DNA of 64,000 bases from contig CAJPPK010000007.1 in assembly GCA_905372565.1 (NCBI GenBank), positions 11,997-75,996 on the forward strand, read 5' to 3'. This DNA is from an uncultured Porphyromonas sp. (GTDB lineage: Bacteria > Bacteroidota > Bacteroidia > Bacteroidales > Porphyromonadaceae). This document shows positions 2,249 through 53,506 of this stretch, one piece after another. Under the pieces are notes generated by a model. It was not told the origin of the DNA, searched no databases, and saw only the letters and a list, made by a program, of their open reading frames with translations. Both the position numbers and the translations under genes were made by a program. The first letter of the stretch is position 1; each line of letters begins with the position of its first letter.

Positions 2249-3979
2249 ATGTCGCTACGCACACACCTTGAGAGCTTCTTCGCTCGTCTGAGCCAAACGA
2301 CCTATTATTACCTCCTCCTCTTCGCCCTCCTGCTCCCTAATCTCGTCCTCTCGGTCGTGATGCAGCAGCCGATGATCGGGCGAGTGCTGAACATCCTCGT
2401 GATGCTCCCTATCTATATGCTCGTGCTACTGATAGCGAAGCGTCCTGGGCGTGTCTACTGGGGGCTACTGGTACTGATCCTCCTCCATGCCTTTCAGTTA
2501 GTCCTCTTGACGATCTTCAGTGGCTCGGTGGTGGCGGTGGATATGCTACTTAACCTCTTTACCTCGGAGCCAGACGAGGCAGGTGAACTGCTCTCCAACA
2601 TCCTGCTACCCATCCTCTCTATCGGAGGCTTCTATCTCGTGTCTCTGGTCGTCGCTACAGCATCTGCAGTGACACAGGGCAGTCTACTACGCTCGTGGCG
2701 CATACGCATGGGCAAGATAGCCTGCGGTATCCTCCTGCTCGCCTTACCGATCTATATCGGAGCTAAGCAGCGCTTCCCCTACCTGCACCTACGTGCTGAG
2801 GTCTACCCGATGAGTGTCTTCTATAACATGTATCTGGCGACGAAGAAGCTCCGTGAGGTCCTGCGTTATGATCAGACCAGCGCAGAGTTCTGCTTCGGTG
2901 CTGCAAGCGAGCGGGATGAAGACCAGCCCGAGGTGTATGTGCTGGTGCTTGGAGAGACTTCACGGGCTCATAGCTGGAGTCTCTTCGGCTACCCACGTCC
3001 TACGACTCCACATCTAGAGCGCCTACCGAAGGAGGAGCTAGTCGCCTTCCGAGATGTGATGACGCAGTCGAATACGACCTACAAGAGTATCCCGATAATC
3101 CTCTCTCCGGCGGACGCAGAGCATGCCGAGGAGCTTCCTCGGGTGCAGGGCTTGCTGGCAGCATTCAGGGAAGCAGGCTTCTACACCGTCTTCGTCTCTA
3201 ATCAGCCAGCCAATCGTAGCTACATCGACTACTTTGCCCAGCAGGGGGATGAGCACCATGCTATCCGTAAAGAGCTACGTCACCCCAAGCGTCGTATCTA
3301 CGATGCCGATATGCTCCCCTACCTCAAGAGGGCTCTGGAGGCTAAGCATAAGAAGCTCCTCGTCGTCCTGCATACCTACGGCAGTCACTTTAGCTATCGA
3401 GACCGCTGCCCTCAGGCAGAGCAGACCTTCCCCGTGCCCAAGAGCTACTCGGGGTCGGCTAAGGATAGTCTAGCACTGCGCAATGCCTATGACAATGCCA
3501 TCGTCGCTACCGACCGCTTCTTGGCTTCGGTGATTGAGCTCCTTCGTGCCCAGGAGTGCCCTGCCTCGATGCTCTATATCTCGGATCATGGGGAGGACGT
3601 CTATGATGATGCTCGTGAGCGCTTCCTTCACTCTTCTCCCGATATTTCCTACTATCAGCTTCATGTACCGATGCTTTTGTGGATGAGCCCAGCCTATCGG
3701 GAGGCATATCCCCAGCTCGTCGCTACGGCGCAGGCCAATCAGCGCAGGCCGATCAGTACCAATGCTGTCTTCCCGACGATGCTAGAGCTGGCGGGTATCC
3801 AGACTCGTTACCGTCGAGATAGTCTCTCGGTCGTCAGTTCGTCTCTTCGCACGGGTACGCGCTATTACCTCAACGATCGCTATGCCTGCGTTCCGCTCGA
3901 AGCACTAGACCTAGCCGAGGAGGATGTGCATCTCTTCCAGCAGAAGGAACTTCAGCTACCTCTGCCCTCCTGTCCTTAG
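2249..3979 (+). CDS. Phosphoethanolamine transferase / sulfatase-family membrane protein (EptA-like)
   Basis: 576 aa. Multi-TM N-terminal half followed by a sulfatase-type domain (VLVLGETSRAHSW, LHTYGSHFSY, YISDHGE). Confidence 0.75.
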   Translation: MSLRTHLESFFARLSQTTYYYLLLFALLLPNLVLSVVMQQPMIGRVLNILVMLPIYMLVLLIAKRPGRVYWGLLVLILLHAFQLVLLTIFSGSVVAVDMLLNLFTSEPDEAGELLSNILLPILSIGGFYLVSLVVATASAVTQGSLLRSWRIRMGKIACGILLLALPIYIGAKQRFPYLHLRAEVYPMSVFYNMYLATKKLREVLRYDQTSAEFCFGAASERDEDQPEVYVLVLGETSRAHSWSLFGYPRPTTPHLERLPKEELVAFRDVMTQSNTTYKSIPIILSPADAEHAEELPRVQGLLAAFREAGFYTVFVSNQPANRSYIDYFAQQGDEHHAIRKELRHPKRRIYDADMLPYLKRALEAKHKKLLVVLHTYGSHFSYRDRCPQAEQTFPVPKSYSGSAKDSLALRNAYDNAIVATDRFLASVIELLRAQECPASMLYISDHGEDVYDDARERFLHSSPDISYYQLHVPMLLWMSPAYREAYPQLVATAQANQRRPISTNAVFPTMLELAGIQTRYRRDSLSVVSSSLRTGTRYYLNDRYACVPLEALDLAEEDVHLFQQKELQLPLPSCP

Positions 3980-3994
3980 GCGATCATTCCGCGA

Positions 3995-4088
3995 CCAACT
4001 AGTAGGCAACAGTAGTGCCCCTCAAGAGGCAACAGTATTACCCCTCGAGGGGCACTACTGTTGCCTCTTTTGTGTTGATACTGCTACC
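3995..4088 (+). repeat. Family-1 intergenic element, copy L1: four 15-bp GGCA-N7-TGCC-type units at a 23-bp period
   Basis: Units at 4005, 4028, 4051 and 4074 (GGCAACAGTAGTGCC / GGCAACAGTATTACC / GGCACTACTGTTGCC / degenerate). 3995-4023 and 4047-4066 form a perfect 20-bp stem followed by CTTTTG. The same element recurs at 16112, 21214 and 41009. Confidence 0.85.
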
Positions 4089-4323
4089 CCCATGGGATGA
4101 GCCTTGCTGATCGAGGTGTTTCCTCTCGCTAGGGAGGGGAAGAGGAGCTTGTTTAGCATACTTTAAGCCTAAGTCGCTGACATATTGACATATAAGTAAT
4201 CCTTCTTGTCGTATTTTAGTGGTGAAGTCTGCCACTTTGGCGGATTTCTTCGTTTAGGTATTCCCTTTGCATCTGCCTTTGACGAGAGCGATGTTGCTCC
4301 CAAGACAATACGAACACAAAAAG

Positions 4324-6915
<2,592 letters not shown>

Positions 6916-9226: not shown

Positions 9227-9314
9227 AAGGTATAGCTTGGAGGGAATGAAGGTATAGCTTTATGGGACTAGCGCCCTACCTTTTCTTGGGGAAAGGTAGG
9301 GCTTTCTTTTACCC
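9227..9314 (+). repeat. Family-3 array P: four 22-bp-period units with an AAGGTAnnnCTT core
   Basis: AAGGT starts at 9227, 9249 and 9293. The unit at 9271 carries the core inverted (CCCTACCTTTT). The 15-mer GAAAGGTAGGGCTTT is identical to one at 58476. Confidence 0.75.
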
Positions 9315-13295: not shown

Positions 13296-13337
13296 TCCTT
13301 CTCCCTACCCTCTTTGCTCTCCCTTTCCCCTATCCCC

Positions 13338-15995
13338 ATGGCCAAGAAAATAGCTGAGACCCCCCTGATGAAGCAATATCTGGAGCTTAAAGGCAAGCAC
13401 CCTGATGCCTTGCTCCTCTTCCGTGTGGGGGACTTCTATGAGACGTTCAGCGATGATGCCATTATCGCTTCCGAGATTTTGGGGATCACGCTGACGCGTA
13501 GGGCTAACGGTGCGGCGATGCACATCGAGCTTGCCGGCTTCCCTCATCATGCTTTGGATGCCTATCTGCCTAAGCTCGTACGAGCAGGCAAGCGTGTCGC
13601 TATCTGCGACCAGCTAGAGGATCCGAAGCTAACGAAGAAGCTCGTCAAGCGAGGGATCACCGAGCTCGTCACCCCAGGCGTAGTCCTCGGGGACAATGTG
13701 CTAGAGAGTAAGGAGAATAACTACCTAGCTGCCGTCTGGCTTGACCCGACGGGGGAGCGAGGGAGCATTGCCTTCCTCGACATCTCTACGGGGGATTTTG
13801 TCGTCTCCGAGGGAGCAATAGCGCACTTAGATAAGCTCCTGACGACCTATCAGCCTAAGGAAGTACTGGTAGAGCGCTCGACCAAGGGACGCTTCGATCG
13901 GTGTTTCTCCTTCCGAGGCTTCCTCTTTGAGGTCGAGGACTGGAGCTTTGCCGTGGAGAATAACCGACGCAAGCTCCTCACGCACTTTGGCCTACAGAGC
14001 CTCAAAGGGCTAGGTCTGGAGAATAAGACTGCTTCGATCGCTGCCGCAGGGGCAATCCTTAACTATCTGGAGCTAACGAGTCACCATGAGCTGGGGCATA
14101 TCACCACGCTCAGAAGCATTGACCGCCTCGACTACATGCGCCTCGATAGCTTCACTTTCCGTAGCCTAGAGATCCTCTATCCGATGCACCGAGAGGAGGG
14201 GAAGAGCCTCCTTGACGTCCTGGACAAGACGGAGACGGCTATGGGAGGGCGTCTCTTGAGGCGATGGCTCTCCTTCCCTTTGCTTGACCTTGATGCGATC
14301 CATCGGCGCCAAGGGATCGTCGGAACGCTGGTCAAGGAGCATGAGCTTCGTCGCACATTTGGGGAGCTCCTTCGTGGTATCGGTGACTTAGAGCGACTGA
14401 GCTCCAAGGTCGCAGTCGGGCGTATCTCTCCTCGGGAGATGCGTCAGCTAGCTCTCTCCCTCCGTCAAGCAGAGATGTTGGTCGGGCTAACCGCTGGGGC
14501 TACCGTCCCAGAGCTAGCGAGCTATGCCACGAACTACACCTCCTGCACCGAGATCGTCGAGGAGCTGGAGCATACCCTGACAGAGGAGCCTCCTGCCGTC
14601 CTTGGGCGAGGACAGACCATTGCCACGGGGATAGATGCTGAATTGGATGACCTTCGTCGACTCTCTTCTCATGGTAAGGAGTATCTACTGGAGCTTCAGC
14701 GACGAGAGAGCGAGCGTACGGGGATCACTTCCCTCAAGGTCGCCTTTAATAATGTCTTCGGTTACTACGTCGAGGTGCGCTCTGCTCATAAGGATAAGGT
14801 CCCCGAGGACTGGACACGTAAGCAAACCCTTGTCAATGCCGAGCGCTACATCTTCCCCGAGCTAAAGGAGTATGAGGAGAAGATCCTAGGGGCAGAGGAG
14901 CGCATCGCTTCCCTAGAGCAGAAGCTCTATACTGCCCTAGTGCTACGTCTAGCACGCTATATCCCGACCTTACAGCAGAATGCCCGCCTCGTAGCGGAGC
15001 TAGACTGTCTCACTTCGCTAGCTAGTGTGGCTGTCGAGCAGCGCTATGTCTGTCCGGTGGTAGACGATGGAGACCGCTTGGATATTCGTCAGGGGCGCCA
15101 CCCTGTCATCGAGCTTCAGCTACCCTTCGGACAGAGCTATGTCCCCAATGACGTTCGTTTAGATACGGAGGAAACCCAAGTGATGGTCATCACCGGGCCT
15201 AACATGAGTGGTAAGTCTGCTCTCCTTCGACAGACTGCGCTGATCACCTTGTTGGCACAGATCGGCTCCTTCGTACCTGCAGAGGCAGCACATGTAGGGC
15301 TGGTAGATGGGATCTTCACCCGAGTCGGCGCTTCGGACAATATCTCTCGAGGGGAATCCACCTTCATGGTCGAGATGCAGGAGGCCTCAAGTATCCTCAA
15401 TGCTATCACGCCGAAGTCACTCATCCTCTTCGATGAACTCGGGCGTGGTACCAGTACGTATGACGGGATTTCGATCGCTTGGGCGATCATCGAGTATCTC
15501 CATGATAATCCCCATGGGAGACCTAAGACCCTCTTCGCGACACACTATCATGAGCTGAATGATCTGGAGAGTCGCCTCGCTCGCGTCAAGAACTTCAATG
15601 TCTCGGCACGAGAGATCGACGGGAAGATGCTCTTCCTCCGTAAGCTCGTCCCTGGGGGGAGTGAGCATAGCTTCGGGATCCAAGTGGCACGTCTTGGGGG
15701 GATGCCTGCAAGCATTACTGCACGTGCCAGCGAGATCCTCTCCCAGCTGGAGGAAGCGCATATCCACGAGGAGACGGGGCTAGGGAAGGAGGTCAAGGTC
15801 AGCCGAGCTACCTCGAATGAGGCTCTCCCTACGGAGAAGATTACGGGAGGGGTACAGATGAGCTTCTTCCAGCTCGATGACCCTGTCCTCTCAGACATTC
15901 GGGAGCGCCTACTGAAGGTGGATATCAACGCCCTCACTCCTCTAGAGGCGCTCAATAAGCTCAGCGAGATCCAGCGTCTCCTGCAGACCAGCTAG
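13338..15995 (+). CDS. mutS: DNA mismatch repair protein MutS
   Basis: N-terminal TPLMKQYLELKGKHPDALLLFRVGDFYE, Walker A GPNMSGKSALLRQ, and Walker B region LILFDELGRGTSTYDG. The ATG at 13338 is preferred. Confidence 0.95.
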   Translation: MAKKIAETPLMKQYLELKGKHPDALLLFRVGDFYETFSDDAIIASEILGITLTRRANGAAMHIELAGFPHHALDAYLPKLVRAGKRVAICDQLEDPKLTKKLVKRGITELVTPGVVLGDNVLESKENNYLAAVWLDPTGERGSIAFLDISTGDFVVSEGAIAHLDKLLTTYQPKEVLVERSTKGRFDRCFSFRGFLFEVEDWSFAVENNRRKLLTHFGLQSLKGLGLENKTASIAAAGAILNYLELTSHHELGHITTLRSIDRLDYMRLDSFTFRSLEILYPMHREEGKSLLDVLDKTETAMGGRLLRRWLSFPLLDLDAIHRRQGIVGTLVKEHELRRTFGELLRGIGDLERLSSKVAVGRISPREMRQLALSLRQAEMLVGLTAGATVPELASYATNYTSCTEIVEELEHTLTEEPPAVLGRGQTIATGIDAELDDLRRLSSHGKEYLLELQRRESERTGITSLKVAFNNVFGYYVEVRSAHKDKVPEDWTRKQTLVNAERYIFPELKEYEEKILGAEERIASLEQKLYTALVLRLARYIPTLQQNARLVAELDCLTSLASVAVEQRYVCPVVDDGDRLDIRQGRHPVIELQLPFGQSYVPNDVRLDTEETQVMVITGPNMSGKSALLRQTALITLLAQIGSFVPAEAAHVGLVDGIFTRVGASDNISRGESTFMVEMQEASSILNAITPKSLILFDELGRGTSTYDGISIAWAIIEYLHDNPHGRPKTLFATHYHELNDLESRLARVKNFNVSAREIDGKMLFLRKLVPGGSEHSFGIQVARLGGMPASITARASEILSQLEEAHIHEETGLGKEVKVSRATSNEALPTEKITGGVQMSFFQLDDPVLSDIRERLLKVDINALTPLEALNKLSEIQRLLQTS

Positions 15996-16069: not shown

Positions 16070-16111
16070 GTGAGCCATGGGTGAAGTTTCGCCGAAGGGG
16101 AGATACAAAGG

Positions 16112-16205
16112 AGCATCAGTATTAACACAAAAGGGGCATCAGTAGTGCCTCTCCTGGGGTAATACTGTTGCCTCTGGAGAGGCACTACTGTTGCCTACTA
16201 GTTGG
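16112..16205 (-). repeat. Family-1 intergenic element, copy L2 (inverted relative to L1)
   Basis: Units at 16112, 16135, 16158 and 16181, exactly 23 bp apart, ending in TACTAGTTGG (reverse complement of the CCAACTAGTA that opens L1 and L3). The reverse complement aligns with L1 over about 95 bp. Confidence 0.85.
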
Positions 16206-16403
16206 ATTTTCGCTCCCCTCTCTCGAGGTCGCTCTGAGGAGGGGAGCGGAGGGGAAAGTATCCTGCTTGATCCTATGCTTTGGCTGTCGAATGAACTCCA
16301 GATTGACTTCCAGAAAGGAGGTGCTACCTGCCATGGAGAGATTTACAGGCTTAGACATTTTGTACAAAGATTTTAAGGAGCATGTATTGTAAGAGAGAAT
16401 ACA

Positions 16404-16411
16404 TACCTTTG
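16404..16411 (+). promoter_or_regulatory. -7 promoter box TACCTTTG upstream of hslR
   Basis: Exact TAnnTTTG match 20 nt upstream of the ATG at 16431. Confidence 0.5.
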
Positions 16412-16430
16412 TAGCACAATATTGTCGGAT

Positions 16431-16850
16431 ATGAACGAGGTACGTGTCGATAAATGGCTCTGGGCCGTCCGCATCTTCAAGACCCGAACGCTGGCTGCAG
16501 AAGCCTGTAAGAAAGGTCGGGTAAGTGTCGGCGGTACAGCCATCAAAGCCTCTCGTATGCTCCAGCGTGGCGATGTGGTTTCTGTGCGCAAGCCCCCGAT
16601 AGAGTACTCCTTTCTCGTGAAGGAGCTGCTGGGGAATCGTGTGGGGGCTAAGCTCGTACCAGAGTATATGGAGAATGTGACACCCCGCTCCCAGTATGAG
16701 CTACTGGAGATGCAGCGTATCTCGGGATTTGTCGATCGTGCTAAGGGACTTGGTCGCCCAACGAAGAAGGACCGCCGAGACCTGGACCAGTTCGCAGAAG
16801 ATCTGCCCACCGATATGGAGGTCTTCGACTGGGAGGAGGAGTGGGATTAG
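16431..16850 (+). CDS. hslR: Ribosome-associated heat shock protein Hsp15 (S4 RNA-binding domain)
   Basis: S4-domain signature VRVDKWLWAVRIFKTRTLAAEACKKGRVSV with an acidic C-terminal tail. Confidence 0.85.
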   Translation: MNEVRVDKWLWAVRIFKTRTLAAEACKKGRVSVGGTAIKASRMLQRGDVVSVRKPPIEYSFLVKELLGNRVGAKLVPEYMENVTPRSQYELLEMQRISGFVDRAKGLGRPTKKDRRDLDQFAEDLPTDMEVFDWEEEWD

Positions 16851-20308: not shown

Positions 20309-21112
20309 ATGAGTACGCGCTCCAAGGTCTTCTTCACGAGTGATGCCCACCTCGGCTCGGGCTACCATCAGGATCCTCATGCGGTGGAGTGCCGGCTAGT
20401 ACGCTGGCTGCAGCAGATCGAGCCAGAGGCTAAGGCGGTCTACTTCCTCGGGGATATGTTCGACTACTGGTTTGAGTATCGAGCGGTCGTCCCACGGGGG
20501 CATGTTCGCTTCCTTGGGCAAGTTGCCCTGATGCATGATGCCGGTGTGGAGATCCACTTCTTTGCGGGCAATCATGATGTTTGGTTTAGTGACTACCTCC
20601 AGACGGAACTGGGTGCGACGATTCATCACCACGCCTCGGTCGTCGAGCTGGATGGCAAGCGCTTCCGTCTCGCTCATGGCGATGAGGAGTATATGGGACA
20701 GCACTGGACGAATAAGTTCCTCTACAAGCTCTTCCGCAATCCGCTAGCCCGCTGGCTCTATGCCGGTGTCCATCCACGCTGGACGGTGGGACTAGCGCTA
20801 GGCTTATCCCTGCGTAGTCGTCAGAAGGGGATGAAGCGCCGTACGCTGGGGCAGATCCCTCACGCCTATCACAATGCCTACTTCGATGTCGAGAAGGAAT
20901 GGCTGGTGCGCTGGACGAAGAGCTATATGCCCGCTCACCCCGAGATCGACTATTACCTCTTTGGGCATCGTCACCTGCTCTTGGATCTCTCCTTGCGTGG
21001 AGGGAAGCGTCTGGTGATCTTGGGTGATTGGCTACAGTACAATTCGTTTGCTGTCTGGGACGGTGAAAACCTCTTCGTGGATCAGTTCGTCGAGGACGAA
21101 GAAGCGAGCTAA
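20309..21112 (+). CDS. lpxH: UDP-2,3-diacylglucosamine diphosphatase
   Basis: Calcineurin-like metallophosphoesterase motifs (FTSDAHLG, GDMFDYWFEY, GNHDVW, HGDE). Length of 267 aa is typical of LpxH. Confidence 0.8.
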   Translation: MSTRSKVFFTSDAHLGSGYHQDPHAVECRLVRWLQQIEPEAKAVYFLGDMFDYWFEYRAVVPRGHVRFLGQVALMHDAGVEIHFFAGNHDVWFSDYLQTELGATIHHHASVVELDGKRFRLAHGDEEYMGQHWTNKFLYKLFRNPLARWLYAGVHPRWTVGLALGLSLRSRQKGMKRRTLGQIPHAYHNAYFDVEKEWLVRWTKSYMPAHPEIDYYLFGHRHLLLDLSLRGGKRLVILGDWLQYNSFAVWDGENLFVDQFVEDEEAS

Positions 21113-21213: not shown

Positions 21214-21307
21214 CCAACTAGTAGGCAACAGTAGTGCCACCCGAGGGGCACTACTGTTGCCTGTGAAGAGGCACTACTGATGCCCCTTTTGAGGTAACAC
21301 TGTTACT
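21214..21307 (+). repeat. Family-1 intergenic element, copy L3
   Basis: CCAACTAGTA followed by units at 21224, 21247, 21270 and 21293 (23-bp period): GGCAACAGTAGTGCC / GGCACTACTGTTGCC / GGCACTACTGATGCC / GGTAACACTGTTACT. Confidence 0.85.
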
Positions 21308-21372
21308 CCCGAGGGGATGACCTCTTCCTGAGGGTGGGGATTACAGGCTTTGGATGAGGGGGAAACCCTGCC

Positions 21373-21462
21373 AGAGGTATAAATTGTGTAACTTCGTATG
21401 GGCGCATATAGACCTGCCTTAAGGGGGTGAAGGCTTAGACCTTCCACCTCGATCCTGGGCTT
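21373..21462 (+). repeat. Direct repeat DR1 (promoter/leader copy, G5 tract), upstream of the small OMP paralog
   Basis: These 90 bp are identical to 22219-22312 except for one C/T substitution in the -7 box (TAACTTCG here, at 21389-21396) and the G-run length (G5 at 21423-21427). Confidence 0.9.
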
Positions 21463-21497
21463 TGGTGGCTGGGTTGGATATAACTAACATGGTAATA

Positions 21498-22073
21498 ATG
21501 ATGAATATTCGTCTTGTAATTCTAGGGCTCATGGCACTTATCCTAGGGGGTAAGCTTTATGGGCAAGAAGGCTCACGAGGTCGCCTCGGTATATTGCTTG
21601 GGGGAATGAATGGCGTGAGCTATGACTATTCCCTCAATAGCCACTTCGAGGTAGGGGCATCAGCTCTATTAGGTCTTGGGTTAGGCTATGATAATGCCAC
21701 TGGGGGAGTCAGCTATAGTGGATTTACTCCAGCACTTGAAGTGACACCTCGCTACTTCTTCTCTCGTCGTCAGGATGGGGAGCTTTTCCACAAAGGCGCT
21801 TATCTTTCCGTGCGTTTTGAGGGACAGATGGATAAGTGGACTCTCTTCCCTAGTCGTGCGATACGTGAGAGTGATAGGAAGTATCAGTATACACTAGCTT
21901 TTGTGCCGACCTTCGGGTGGAGTATCCCTGTAGGAGAGAGGTGCTTCGTCCGTCTAGGCGCTGGTATTAGCTTCTATCGCCAAAAGTCTATAGAGGCAGG
22001 TGTCACCTTCTGGGACACTCGATCGGGTACGATACCTATCCAATTGGAGATGACTTATGGCATCGCTTTCTAG
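21498..22073 (+). CDS. Small secreted OM beta-barrel-like protein (intact paralog of 12203-12780)
   Basis: About 191 aa from MMNIRLVILGLMALILGGKLYGQ (signal peptide). Alternating beta-strand-like pattern with a C-terminal aromatic residue (..TYGIAF). Function unknown. Confidence 0.6.
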   Translation: MMNIRLVILGLMALILGGKLYGQEGSRGRLGILLGGMNGVSYDYSLNSHFEVGASALLGLGLGYDNATGGVSYSGFTPALEVTPRYFFSRRQDGELFHKGAYLSVRFEGQMDKWTLFPSRAIRESDRKYQYTLAFVPTFGWSIPVGERCFVRLGAGISFYRQKSIEAGVTFWDTRSGTIPIQLEMTYGIAF

Positions 22074-22218: not shown

Positions 22219-22312
22219 AGAGGTATAAATTGTGTAACTTTGTATGGGCGCATATAGACCTGCCTTAAGGGGGGGGGTGAAGGCTTAGACCTTCCACCTC
22301 GATCCTGGGCTT
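22219..22312 (+). repeat. Direct repeat DR2 (promoter/leader copy, G9 tract), upstream of the PSP1-gldH-lon genes
   Basis: 94-bp copy of DR1. It contains a perfect -7 box TAACTTTG at 22235-22242 and a G9 homopolymer at 22269-22277. Confidence 0.9.
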
Positions 22313-38834: not shown

Positions 38835-39982
38835 AGATCATCTATTGTATCCCAGCGACCTCTAACTCGGGAGGAATGGAGCGCGTCCTAGCGAGGAAGG
38901 TGAATTACCTAGCAGAGCGTGGCTATGAGCTAGCGATTATTACTACCGATCAGCGAGGGAAGGCTCCCTTTTTCCCACTCCATGCTAGCATCACGCAGTA
39001 TGATCTGGGGATCAATTACGATGAGAACAACGGTCAAGGGCTTCGGGCGAAGCTGAGAGCATATCCACGAAAGAAGCGCCTGCATCGTGAGCGACTCTCC
39101 AAACTATTAGTAGAGCTTCAGGCTGACATTGTCATCTCTATGTTTGGGGATGATGCGGACTTTCTGCCAAGTATTCAAGATAGCAGTCGTAAGGTGCTGG
39201 AGTATCACTTCTCAAAGCTCAAGCGCCTGCAATATGGTCGTAAGGGACTTTGGCGTATGATCGATCACTACCGCACGTGGCGTGATGAGTCTACGGTGCG
39301 AGGCTATGATCGCTTCGTTGTTTTGACGGCCGAAGATGCAGGATACTGGGGAAGCCTTCCAAATATCCAAGTGATCCCCAATCCTTTGCCATTTACTTCT
39401 GAAGAAGTCTCAGATTGTACCTCCAAGCGAGTCCTCGCTGCTGGGCGGTATGACTTCCAGAAGAATTTCTCCCTCCTTCTGCGGATTTGGTCTCAGATCG
39501 CTCCCAGCTATCCGGACTGGAAGCTGGAGATTATCGGGGATGGAGCGCTCCGTCCCGCCTTGGAGGAGGAAGTTGTACAGCTAGGACTCTCATCTTCTGT
39601 CGAGCTCTCTCGTCCGACCCAAGAGATGCAGGCGGTCTATCTGCATTCTTCTGTCTATGCGATGACTTCTCGCTATGAGGGGCTACCTATGGTGCTGATC
39701 GAAGCGCAACAGATGGGACTGCCTATTGTCTCTTTTGCTTGTCCTTGTGGTCCACGTGATGTGATCCATGAGGGCGAAGATGGATTCCTGATACCCTTAG
39801 GCGAGGAAGACGCCTTCGTCCGTGCACTACGTCTGCTCATGGACTCTGAGGCAGAGCGCCAGCGTATGGGACGGGCAGCTCGTCTCTCTTCTGCTCGCTA
39901 TGATGTAGACACGATCATGGCGCATTGGATCCAGCTCTTCGATACCCTCTCCGTTACTCCTTCTTCAACTCCTGTCTCATGA
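38831..39982 (+). CDS. Glycosyltransferase family 4
   Basis: GT-B C-terminal motif EGLPMVLIEAQQMGLPIVSF. ATGA overlap with the upstream gene. Confidence 0.85.
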   Translation: MKIIYCIPATSNSGGMERVLARKVNYLAERGYELAIITTDQRGKAPFFPLHASITQYDLGINYDENNGQGLRAKLRAYPRKKRLHRERLSKLLVELQADIVISMFGDDADFLPSIQDSSRKVLEYHFSKLKRLQYGRKGLWRMIDHYRTWRDESTVRGYDRFVVLTAEDAGYWGSLPNIQVIPNPLPFTSEEVSDCTSKRVLAAGRYDFQKNFSLLLRIWSQIAPSYPDWKLEIIGDGALRPALEEEVVQLGLSSSVELSRPTQEMQAVYLHSSVYAMTSRYEGLPMVLIEAQQMGLPIVSFACPCGPRDVIHEGEDGFLIPLGEEDAFVRALRLLMDSEAERQRMGRAARLSSARYDVDTIMAHWIQLFDTLSVTPSSTPVS

Positions 39983-41082
39983 AGCGAATAGTCATCTCTG
40001 CGGTCAATCTTCGCAAGGGAGGGACGCTGACTATCCTACGCCAATGTCTTTCGTTCCTCTCCGAGTGGGCTCCTAAAGCAGGCTACGAGGTCGTCGCTCT
40101 AGTGCATAAGCAGGAGCTCGCGGACTATCCTAATATTCGCTACATCGAGCTCCCTTGGGCTGCTACTGGCTGGCTCAAGCGTCTGTGGTGTGAGTATGTC
40201 ACCATGGGGAAGATCTCCCAAGAGCTGGGAGAGATCGATTTATGGCTGTCTCTTCATGATACAACGCCTCGAGTGAAGGCGAAGCGTCAGGCAGTTTATT
40301 GCCAGACGTCCTTCCCATTCTTGAAGTGGCGGTGGAGAGATTTTAGCTTTGATAAGAAGATCCCTCTCTTTGCGATGTTCACCCGCTTTGCTTACCAGTT
40401 CGGAATTCGGAGAAATAGTTACCTCGTTGTCCAGCAGGAATGGTTACGTGAGGGCTTTAGTCGCATGTTTGGCTTGCCTAAGGAGCGCTTTATCGTTGCG
40501 CCACCACCTCGAGAGCCTTTACCCAAGCTGGACCTTAAGAAAGAGGAGGGGGCACCCTTTAACTTCCTCTATGCAGCGACCCCTGATGGGCATAAGAACT
40601 TCGAGTTGCTCTGTGAGGCTACGCAGGAGCTGGAGCGACGTGTTGGGAAAGGGAAGTTCCGCACCATCCTCACGATCAGTGGACAGGAGAATAAGTACGC
40701 CCGTTGGCTCTATGAGCAATGGGGGACCTGCTCTAGTCTTGATTTCCGGGGATTCCTTTCCAAGGAGGAGCTACAGAAGACATACGCTTTGACGGACTGT
40801 CTGGTGTTCCCTTCACGTATCGAGACATGGGGGTTACCGATCTCGGAGTTCTTGCCTTATGAGCGCCCCATGCTCTTGGCAGACCTCCCCTATGCCCATG
40901 AGACCTCTCGGGGAGCGGTCGCTGTAGGCTTCTTTAATCCTACTCAAGTCAATGATCTAGTCGATGCTATGCAGGCTGTCCTGGAGGGGCATTTAGAAGG
41001 GCTAAAGGGGCAACAGTGTTGCCCCATCGGAGGCAATACTGTTGCCTCTTGGGAGGCACTACTGTTGCTCCTTTTGGGTTAA
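39979..41082 (+). CDS. Glycosyltransferase (GT-B, family 1/4-like)
   Basis: The ATG at 39979 overlaps the preceding stop (ATGA). Motif ETWGLPISEFLPYERPMLLAD. The last ~25 codons and the stop codon lie inside repeat L4. Confidence 0.75.
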   Translation: MKRIVISAVNLRKGGTLTILRQCLSFLSEWAPKAGYEVVALVHKQELADYPNIRYIELPWAATGWLKRLWCEYVTMGKISQELGEIDLWLSLHDTTPRVKAKRQAVYCQTSFPFLKWRWRDFSFDKKIPLFAMFTRFAYQFGIRRNSYLVVQQEWLREGFSRMFGLPKERFIVAPPPREPLPKLDLKKEEGAPFNFLYAATPDGHKNFELLCEATQELERRVGKGKFRTILTISGQENKYARWLYEQWGTCSSLDFRGFLSKEELQKTYALTDCLVFPSRIETWGLPISEFLPYERPMLLADLPYAHETSRGAVAVGFFNPTQVNDLVDAMQAVLEGHLEGLKGQQCCPIGGNTVASWEALLLLLLG

Positions 41083-41092
41083 CACTAGCAAC
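41009..41092 (+). repeat. Family-1 element, copy L4, overlapping the 3' end of a glycosyltransferase gene
   Basis: Units at 41009 (GGCAACAGTGTTGCC, self-palindromic), 41032, 41055 and 41078 (23-bp period). It lacks the CCAACTAGTA leader. The next ATG is at 41101. Confidence 0.8.
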
Positions 41093-41100
41093 ACTGAACT

Positions 41101-42225
41101 ATGAAGATATTACAACTAGGAAAGTTCTATCCGATCCGTGGTGGAGTCGAGAAGGTGATGGAGATCTTCACCGAAGGGCTAGCCGAGCGTGGCTATGCTT
41201 CGGATATGCTCTGTGCTTCTCATGATGGACGGGTCGATGACATCATCTTGGGCGACGAATCGAAGATCATGCGCACCAAGACGTGGATGAAGCTAGCCGC
41301 CACGATGATTTCACCAGCGATGATCTGGCGCCTACGTAAGATCTGCCGTGAGTATGACATTATCCACATTCACCACCCAGATCCGATGGCGACAGTGGCA
41401 CTCTTCTGCTCGGGCTATAAGGGGAAGGTTGTCCTGCATTGGCATAGCGACATCTTGAAGCAGAAGTTTCTTCTTCGCTTCTTTGCTCCCCTACAGAATT
41501 GGCTCATCCGTCGAGCTGACTTGATCCTCGGCACGACACCTGTCTATGTGAAGGAGTCTCCCTTCCTAAGTAAGGTGCAGTTGAAGACGGGCTACCTGCC
41601 TATCGGGGTCGATCCACACCCTTGGCTAGCCGATGAGATCCGTGAGATCCGCCAGCAGTATCCTGACAAGAAGATCCTCTTTAATATCGGGCGTCTAGTC
41701 TCCTACAAGGGGTACCAGTATCTCATCGAAGCCATGGTACACCTTCCTCAGGAATATGTCTTGCTTATCGGAGGGAAAGGTCCGCTCAAACAAGAGCTAC
41801 AAGAGTTCATCGATCGCTTGGGCCTCCAGGAGCGTGTTAAGCTTCTAGGCTTCATCTCGGATACGCTTAAGCCTGCCTACTTCGGAGCTTGCGATGTCTT
41901 CTGTCTCAGCTCCACGCTCAAGACCGAGGCTTATGCCATCGTGCAGGTCGAAGCGATGTCTCTTGGACGACCTATCGTCGCTACCGAGATCCCTGGGTCA
42001 GGTGTAGCATGGGTCAATGCCCACCAAGAGTCTGGCCTGAATGTCCCGATCGAAGATGCTCCAGCACTCGCTCAGGCCATTCAGAAGATTTGCCAAGATC
42101 CCGAGCTCTGGAGCTCCTATAGCAAGGGTTCACGCCAACGTTTCTTCGAAATCTTTACGAAGGATGAGATGATCAACCAGCTCATTCGTATCTATACAGA
42201 ACTCCTCCATCCTACCATCCCATAG
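41101..42225 (+). CDS. Glycosyltransferase family 4
   Basis: 374 aa with the GT-B motif KTEAYAIVQVEAMSLGRPIVAT. Confidence 0.85.
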   Translation: MKILQLGKFYPIRGGVEKVMEIFTEGLAERGYASDMLCASHDGRVDDIILGDESKIMRTKTWMKLAATMISPAMIWRLRKICREYDIIHIHHPDPMATVALFCSGYKGKVVLHWHSDILKQKFLLRFFAPLQNWLIRRADLILGTTPVYVKESPFLSKVQLKTGYLPIGVDPHPWLADEIREIRQQYPDKKILFNIGRLVSYKGYQYLIEAMVHLPQEYVLLIGGKGPLKQELQEFIDRLGLQERVKLLGFISDTLKPAYFGACDVFCLSSTLKTEAYAIVQVEAMSLGRPIVATEIPGSGVAWVNAHQESGLNVPIEDAPALAQAIQKICQDPELWSSYSKGSRQRFFEIFTKDEMINQLIRIYTELLHPTIP

Positions 42226-50000: not shown

Positions 50001-50092
50001 CGCTATATACCCAACTGCACGATCACGATATACGTATTCGATGTGTCACAATATACCCAATGACGAAGTCAGAATATACGTAACCTGGTGGC
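50001..50092 (+). repeat. Family-2 array A: four 23-bp units with a CAnnATATAC core
   Basis: ATATAC occurs at 50005, 50028, 50051 and 50074, exactly 23 bp apart. About 14 bp is conserved and about 9 bp is variable per unit. Confidence 0.9.
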
Positions 50093-53391: not shown

Positions 53392-53506
53392 AACTTAGTA
53401 TGATATATAGCCTGCTAGCGGAGTTAGGTATATTGTGACAGTGTGGTCGGGTATATTCTGACTCCTCGGTTACGTATATAGCAATGAAGCTGCCACATAT
53501 ATGGTG
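53392..53506 (-). repeat. Family-2 array B: five 23-bp units, inverted relative to array A
   Basis: GTATAT occurs at 53428, 53451 and 53474 (23-bp spacing), with degenerate copies one period either side. The - strand units read CACAATATACC.., CAGAATATACC.. and TGCTATATACGTAACC... Confidence 0.85.

Follow-up and report, generated by a model that had tools for sequence, protein, structure and literature searches.

Intergenic regions of an uncultured Porphyromonas species (assembly GCA_905372565.1, here called G000, a 1.79 Mb draft in 40 contigs with 53% G+C) possess a modular repetitive element of about 96 bp, four copies of which lie in the window, i.e. the whole stretch of 64,000 nucleotides (C7:11997-75996) that was analysed. 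The element is not currently mobile, and it probably represents an old, positionally fixed, lineage-restricted, non-coding modular intergenic repeat of the BrickBuilt class. Labels beginning with C refer to contigs of G000 and those beginning with L to loci or strains on metagenome contigs, while G046, G048, G050, G069 and G070 are other genomes of the genus.

The consensus consists of a fixed head, (C)CAACTAGTA, followed by 15-bp units (GGCA, a 7-nt core and TGCC), 8-bp near-palindromic spacers (YCTCGAGR) and a tail unit, with all parts in a rigid 23-bp phase. A sharp head decamer, CCAACTAGTA, usually precedes three GGCA-N7-TGCC units (U1 to U3) and a fourth, degenerate variant (U4), which reads GTTACTACTGATGCC or GGTAACACTGTTACC. 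In an alignment of the genome's copies the left edge is abrupt, with about 2 bits of information from position 1-2 and about 0 before it, and three or four A/T bases precede it; the right edge is fuzzy, information fading after about position 96 and reaching zero by about position 97. Direct reading confirmed the four window copies and all unit starts listed in the first-pass annotation, always at a spacing of 23 bp. The same four places are returned by an independent repeat search of the window, in which GGCAACAGTAGTGCC with up to 3 mismatches occurs 15 times versus 1.26 +/- 1.08 times in shuffled sequences. The annotation was also right that three copies share a terminal decamer, copy 4 being the one that lacks it. 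Its statement that every copy has exactly four units describes the modal number and is no rule, as 2-6 units are seen and U4 is not a full GGCA-N7-TGCC unit. The window copies are given below with their type, i.e. the orientation pattern of U1-U3 scored with the decamer at the left.

3995..4090, + strand: copy 1, type ++-, with the decamer at 3995-4004, U1 at 4005-4019, U2 at 4028-4042, U3 (inverted) at 4051-4065, spacer 3 (TCTTTTGT) at 4066-4073 and the degenerate U4 at 4074-4088
16110..16205, - strand: copy 2, type ++- on the minus strand, with the decamer at 16196-16205, U1 at 16181-16195, U2 at 16158-16172, U3 at 16135-16149 and U4 at 16112-16126
21214..21309, + strand: copy 3, type +--, with the decamer at 21214-21223, U1 at 21224-21238, U2 at 21247-21261, U3 at 21270-21284 and U4 at 21293-21307
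41009..41092, + strand: copy 4, without decamer and more diverged, with units at 41009, 41032, 41055 and 41078

Copy 1 thus reads CCAACTAGTA, GGCAACAGTAGTGCC cctcaaga, GGCAACAGTATTACC cctcgagg, GGCACTACTGTTGCC tcttttgt, GTTGATACTGCTACC, and copy 2 is 89% complementary to it in the repeat search of the window. The types of copies 1 and 3 recur in the strains L136 and L140, respectively.

These four copies are a small part of a larger family. A pattern search of G000 finds 53 clusters of at least two units, every one of them at the 23-bp period, and about 54 loci overall; the decamer is present at 47 of these loci, all of which are intergenic. G000 itself contains a two-unit copy (C3:88968), a five-unit copy (C4:3377) and two double-ended copies with a decamer at both ends (C12:22595-22698 and C20:1189-1292). 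Outside G000 the strict element pattern has 0 matches in 40 related genomes, and a BLAST search of the consensus against 61 genomes of the genus gives matches only in G050 and G070, with about 15 diverged arrays each, plus a single weak one in G069. Plasmid and phage collections contain no match to the element, no Rfam 15 family reaches the gathering threshold anywhere in the window, and a literature search brings up only BrickBuilt papers. Judged from the sequences searched, the repeat does not extend beyond this uncultured Porphyromonas species and two of its sister species.

The units of G050 and G070 read GGCRCTACTGNTRCC, usually three or four of them at the 23-bp period and some flipped, and some of the arrays carry AACTAGT at one end. 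Eight of the 26 arrays examined in these genomes, representing 5 distinct loci, have a counterpart in G000 that faces the corresponding end of the orthologous gene, where a share of about 10% would be expected by chance (a rough estimate); part of the family therefore predates the three species. The proteins flanking these five shared loci are only 64-96% identical between species. By eye, the genes beside four of the shared arrays encode a UvrD-like helicase, a glycine-tRNA ligase, an amidinotransferase-like protein and a copper ATPase, and the fifth is the open reading frame (ORF) C7:12190.

Within the species, one scan of metagenome contigs yielded 98 loci from about 15 assemblies, which, being 90-98% identical to G000 (most 94-97.5%), come from further strains of this species or of one very close to it. 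When their flanks were mapped, 38 loci could be compared with orthologs, 98 times in total. Not one of these comparisons lacks the element, i.e. presence/absence polymorphism is absent at about 96% identity, and the unit-orientation type is likewise unchanged in all 98. The region upstream of clpB in L001, the nearest named relative, does not conserve synteny and is uninformative on an empty site.

Signatures of transposition are lacking as well. No k-mer of 2-8 nt is common to the flanks above permuted controls at any offset, so that target-site duplications are not present, and 45 of the 47 loci have no terminal inverted repeats, the decamer standing at one end only. PF01797, the family of Y1 transposases associated with repetitive extragenic palindromes (Y1/RAYT), has no match in G000, with 6 of 14 control genomes positive. 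The only integrase candidates of G000 are two Xer-type (XerC/D-like) tyrosine recombinases, one of them encoded 221 nt from an element, a distance compatible with chance, and the only DDE candidate is a sub-threshold DDE_Tnp_1 fragment at a contig end. A selfish, non-autonomous mobile element served by a transposase in trans, whether a MITE (miniature inverted-repeat transposable element) or similar to repetitive extragenic palindromes and bacterial interspersed mosaic elements (REP/BIME), with recent bursts of copying behind the uniformity of the copies, is decidedly unlikely in the face of these results, of the fuzzy right end and of the five loci shared with diverged species. It would nevertheless suit the roughly 54 dispersed and near-identical copies in 1.8 Mb, the sharp and invariant head after 3-4 A/T bases, the clustering of copies (15 gaps below 6 kb versus 8 expected, p=0.0045) and the two double-ended copies, and the draft could hide insertion sequences, given the DDE fragment at a contig end. 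Of the REP/MITE-like family with a 23-bp minisatellite core proposed in the first-pass annotation, the dispersed non-coding repeat and its minisatellite core stand and the MITE or REP label is not supported. Neighbouring copies are not significantly more alike than distant ones (p=0.057 overall, 0.40 within type), and local duplication is not claimed.

Unit number differs between strains at 7 of the 38 loci, by exact 23-bp steps and over a range of 2-6 units. The copy at C3:88968 possesses 2, 4 or 5 units across strains, that at C15:11699 either 4 or 6, and C4:3377 has 5 units in G000 and 4 in six other strains. Contig C25 starts, at C25:1-78, within a perfect tandem array of 3.4 or more copies of ATTACTACTGATGCC+CCTTTTGT, the tail unit; L151 and L181 possess an ordinary four-unit copy at this locus, and an expansion probably broke the assembly there. 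Whole 23-bp units are hence gained and lost in place, as in replication slippage or unequal exchange.

The orientation of units varies between copies genome-wide, as the first-pass annotation described for the window, and six patterns of U1-U3 occur in G000. All three units are minus in 23 copies (one five-unit copy among them), followed by +-- in 9 copies (including both double-decamer copies), -++ in 6, ++- in 5, -+- in 2 and --+ in 1, with one two-unit copy outside the three-unit patterns. Spacers, too, occur as mutual reverse complements, e.g. ACCTGAGG/CCTCAGGT, carried by the neighbouring copies C32:10226 and C32:16034, respectively, and TCTCCAGA/TCTGGAGA. GGCA and TGCC enclose each unit core, and TGCC and GGCA each spacer, so that segments of either kind are invertible without a change of length or phase. 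One such inversion separates strains: at C34:12444, spacer 1, which lies between inverted units, reads TCTCCAGG in G000 and exactly the reverse complement, CCTGGAGA, in L110. Substitutions in spacers comprise 24 complementary versus 10 other transversions, centred on spacer positions 4-5, and an excess of complementary transversions at the spacer centre is the expected product of strand switching at the tip of a palindrome. A spacer 1 swap between the inverted pair C16:21579/C16:23609 in L150 was rejected as a further case; the intervening gene is not inverted, which points to conversion or parallel change. Inversion of a spacer between inverted repeats is the second way in which the element changes in place, seen once, as the whole-spacer flip between strains, and the mixed orientation patterns may have arisen by hairpin-templated strand switching on the unit cores, a step for which the comparisons contain no unit flip between strains.

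In the strain comparisons, sequence divergence is unevenly distributed over the element. U3, which is free of search-pattern bias, differs by 1.0% between strains, the 7-nt cores of U1 and U2 by about 1-1.4%, U4 by 2.7%, the spacers by 4.5-8% and up to 60 nt of flanking non-coding DNA by 6.2%. Compared with the spacers and the non-coding flanks, the unit sequences change at about one sixth of the rate.

Several points weigh against reading the element as an old, fixed repeat with constrained units. The search pattern fixed the decamer and the arms of U1 and U2, which leaves only the cores, U3, spacer 3 and U4 unbiased; a strain set gathered by pattern possibly under-samples empty alleles; and all comparisons share one reference and are hence non-independent. 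G000 is a 40-contig draft, in which a transposase gene could be lost at contig ends. In several spacers 3-4 positions differ together and the result is a form that is frequent among other copies, and such changes mean that block turnover or conversion is also at work. The low divergence of units could consequently stem from turnover rather than selection, swapped blocks of unit plus spacer giving a false picture of conserved units and fast spacers. Finally, the genes at the five arrays conserved between species have no common theme, which speaks against a classical regulon.

Oppositely oriented units pair into long perfect stems, as the first-pass annotation proposed, with folds of the window copies between -39 and -68 kcal/mol (z -4.0 to -10.8). 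Copy 1 folds at -54 kcal/mol (z -7.4), copy 2 at -43 and -55 kcal/mol and copy 4 at -47 kcal/mol (z -5.9). Across the family the mixed-orientation types form 20-30-bp stems with z of -4 to -10.8; the consensus of the copies with all units in the same direction (24 of 47) folds no better than shuffled sequences (z -0.96). Long hairpins in half of the copies may be a by-product of strand switching.

The window copies differ in their surroundings. Copy 1 lies 15 nt past the stop codon of an EptA-like gene (2249-3979) and 176 nt ahead of the clpB ORF (4267-6915), whose product is 87% identical to ClpB of a metagenome-assembled 'uncultured Porphyromonadaceae' genome. Copy 2 has convergent genes on both sides, mutS (13314-15995, +) and an ORF of 145 amino acids (aa; 16373-16810, -). 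Copy 3 is placed between an LpxH-like gene (20309-21112, +) and a 203-aa ORF (21462-22073, +); the ORF downstream is flanked by a 90-bp direct repeat (21373-21462 and 22219-22312, 98-100% identical). Copy 4 forms the last 24 codons and the stop of a 385-aa ORF (39925-41082); between its end and the ATG of the ORF 41101-42225 lie 8 nt.

The terminator-like hairpins that the first-pass annotation placed downstream of genes agree with copy 1, where TCTTTTGT follows the stem, and are not supported as a property of the family. Among three copies in the stretch covered by a terminator scan copy 1 alone is flagged, and copy 3 has no T run after its U1:U2 hairpin. The combination of a G+C-rich hairpin and a sense-strand T run behind a gene is found at copy 1, is possible by type in about one third of the copies and is impossible in 24, so the terminator reading fits only some copies, the same-direction half remaining unfolded. 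It is very improbable that the family as a whole consists of RNA hairpins serving as intrinsic terminators or stabilisers of mRNA at gene 3' ends, in the manner of REP sequences: only 3 loci are convergent versus 17 divergent, and in tandem contexts the hairpin copies are co-oriented with genes 10 times and opposed 6 times (hand count), although the 20-30 bp stems of the window copies, the place of copy 1 directly after a stop codon and that of copy 2 between convergent genes would agree with such a role. Secondary use as a terminator is probable for a few hairpins, e.g. that of copy 1.

At two loci other strains possess additional genes between direct copies of the element. In L148 (1117-3139; also in L103, L156 and L130) a 1.9-kb insert encoding a 488-aa ORF, AlbA_2/ATPase-like by eye, lies between two direct copies at the ortholog of C13:29908-30001. 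In L116 (1430-4503; also in L107), at the ortholog of C34:3038-3131, a 3.0-kb insert contains a 735-aa lipoprotein-like ORF and is flanked by two direct copies with the same locus-specific spacers, the junction falling inside unit 4 immediately after GGTAAYACTG. A paralogue of the 735-aa ORF with 69% identity is found beside another element in L161. G000 has a single element copy at both cassette loci and neither cassette gene anywhere in its sequence. The ortholog of C34:12444 in L161 (6125-6182) is a 58-bp perfect palindrome composed of decamer, U1, spacer, inverted U1 and inverted decamer, and the DNA beyond it is unrelated to G000 (a synteny break).

Such cassettes, each in at least two assemblies, would be expected if the elements were recombination sites for accessory cassettes, either attC-like or as portable homology, and the chimeric double-ended copies and the 58-bp palindromic copy mark joints of rearrangement. 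We give this explanation a very small probability. There is no IntI-type integrase in G000, where the recombinases are limited to the two Xer-like ones, and no fixed crossover point, as the two junctions fall at different points of unit 4; the locus-specific spacers common to the flanking copies fit an ordinary deletion by homologous recombination in G000; no segment between copies of G000 is lost in other strains; and only 2 of 38 loci are covered. The cassette and palindrome rearrangements are most simply explained by homologous recombination between copies.

With respect to neighbouring genes, 17 of 46 loci are situated between divergent genes, versus an expectation of 21% by length (p=0.01) or 9% by count, and 3 of 46 between convergent genes. 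In tandem contexts the orientation of the element is independent of gene direction. Outward-facing, promoter-like TAnnTTTG boxes occur 29-211 nt from either element end, without fixed spacing within this range.

One orientation of the unit reads GGCAC-N5-TTGC, which is the exact core and spacing of the sigma-54 -24/-12 elements. The literature search returned nothing on sigma-54 sites in Porphyromonas. That the element represents arrays of sigma-54 promoters, or enhancer sites for a single sigma-54 activator, is extremely unlikely. The match in motif and spacing is accompanied by a concentration of 28 of the 42 loose sigma-54-like matches of the genome inside elements (only 3 others are intergenic) and by the presence of rpoN and one activator in G000, and an enhancer would suit the upstream location and the indifference to orientation. 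In tandem contexts, however, 35 units are directed at the gene start and 42 in the opposite direction (hand count), and unidirectional copies face away in 5 of 10 such contexts. The sister species lose TTGC and often GG, and the conserved part is the central CTACTG, i.e. the sigma-54 spacer; three holoenzymes cannot fit at 23-bp spacing; and the flanking genes are unrelated housekeeping genes. RpoN (with the RpoN box RRTVAKYR) and the activator are encoded at C20:4032-5585 and C36:348-1634, the latter being the single activator-like AAA+ protein (Walker A GESGVGKE, GSFTGA loop, C-terminal helix-turn-helix, no N-terminal sensor domain), and an element lies 67 nt downstream of rpoN. The three intergenic sigma-54-like sites outside elements are C4:1973, C8:33327 and C16:21241, e.g. 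TGGCATACTCTTTGCT, 48 nt upstream of the small ORF C4:2037-2330.

Returning to the fixed modular repeat, the preferred explanation for the constraint on its units is that a host DNA-binding factor would recognise them as duplex DNA in either direction, a suggestion to which we assign somewhat less than an even chance. The element would then probably be an array of predicted protein-binding sites upstream of promoters. The alternative is that the uniformity of units is kept by gene conversion and unit turnover alone, without any function.

The 23-bp step is not restricted to this family. According to Tandem Repeats Finder (TRF), G000 contains 95 arrays with a period of 23 bp and 41 with a period of 22 bp, and 1-3 each at 20, 21 and 24 bp. 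The 22/23-bp arrays include at least five unrelated unit families (GGCACTACTGTTGCC, GTCACAATATACCyAACC, AAGGTATAGCTT, TGGGACAAnnGTCCCA and AACGTATACGTT); examples of such arrays in the window are located at 50001-50079, 53405-53483 and 9227-9314. A wider and tentative reading, on the whole unlikely, is that the element represents one family in a host-driven system by which short intergenic arrays would be built or kept at a fixed step of 22-23 bp, in which the units would be under purifying selection as direction-blind binding or chromosome-organising sites upstream of promoters and the arrays would be preferred joints for the gain and loss of accessory genes.

The family offers a clear natural case of palindrome-bounded pieces of a few bases inverting inside a repeat family, one of them caught between strains. 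Slow evolution of units and the positions that some arrays have kept across species are unexpected for junk DNA and make the hypothesis of a binding factor testable. The element is further a well-resolved example of the habit of Porphyromonas and other Bacteroidota to fill intergenic DNA with fixed two-turn arrays. In practical terms the arrays are variable-number markers for strain typing and likely breakpoints in short-read assemblies.

The closest known system is BrickBuilt, a minisatellite/MITE of Porphyromonas gingivalis and P. gulae with a consensus 23-nt unit AGACCATAGTATCCTCTCATATG, present in 1 to 22.8 direct copies that run head to tail in one direction and are enclosed by a leader and a tail (up to 285 and 318 nt, respectively) bearing IS5-type ends GAGACCTTTGCA / TGCAAAGGTCTC (Klein et al. 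2015, PMC4596501). Both repeats occur in the same genus and share the unit length of 23 nt, the intergenic position at tens of loci, a strain-variable number of units, predicted stem-loops, the lack of an Rfam match and, loosely, the frame GAGAGG..ACTA..TG..TCTC. Unlike BrickBuilt, the element usually has four units, and these run in both directions. On the relation of the two, which the first-pass annotation left open, the comparison does not support membership of the element in BrickBuilt: leader, tail and end repeats are not shared, and the similarity of the sequences is not significant. A leader or tail of the BrickBuilt kind is absent, as information vanishes just before position 1 and again by about position 97, and the IS5-like ends give 9 one-mismatch matches versus 5 for a reversed control, none at an element border. 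The BrickBuilt 23-mer is present in exactly two genomes of the window's genus in the Genome Taxonomy Database (GTDB), G046 and G048, which identifies that genus as Porphyromonas, and its pattern is absent from G000; conversely, BLAST of the element consensus against G046 and G048 gives no match. Alignment of the units is marginal (p=0.025 for G000, 0.15 for the sister-species consensus), and 0 of 12 genes flanking six BrickBuilt loci match genes that flank the element. A BrickBuilt array one unrelated gene beyond the syntenic block of C34:12444 was considered and is too weak to count. Judged on these comparisons, the element is a repeat of the same kind as BrickBuilt in the same genus and a separate family, real and abundant, but without the transposon-like ends of BrickBuilt. 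In the P. gulae-like genome G048 one BrickBuilt unit (C8:57768-57804) reads AGAGGATACTATCC instead of AGACCATAGTATCC, i.e. it is partly reverse-complemented, which suggests that small inversions akin to those of the element occur in BrickBuilt too.

Among more distant systems, the element resembles BOX of Streptococcus pneumoniae in its modular plan and differs from it in sequence, in the 23-bp period and in the flipping of units. BOX is a modular, dispersed, non-coding and intergenic repeat with fixed end modules and variable internal tandem modules (45-59 bp each), capable of forming stable secondary structures; to our knowledge, neither a transposase nor a strict two-turn period or unit flipping has been described for it. 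Enterobacterial REP/BIME sequences consist of short palindromic units in both orientations, which are clustered, positionally conserved between strains and sometimes act as terminators or protein-binding sites; they are transcribed, lie for the most part at gene 3' ends and normally come with a Y1 RAYT gene. The element, in contrast, has no Y1 gene, favours divergent regions and possesses a rigid 23-bp phase and a fixed head decamer. In the 'minute inversions' of chloroplast hairpins and in the template switching at quasi-palindromes of E. coli, the loop between inverted repeats is reverse-complemented with its length unchanged, each time in isolated hairpins. The spacer flip at C34:12444 is exactly such a change; here, the process is repeated within a dispersed family and would yield its orientation subtypes.

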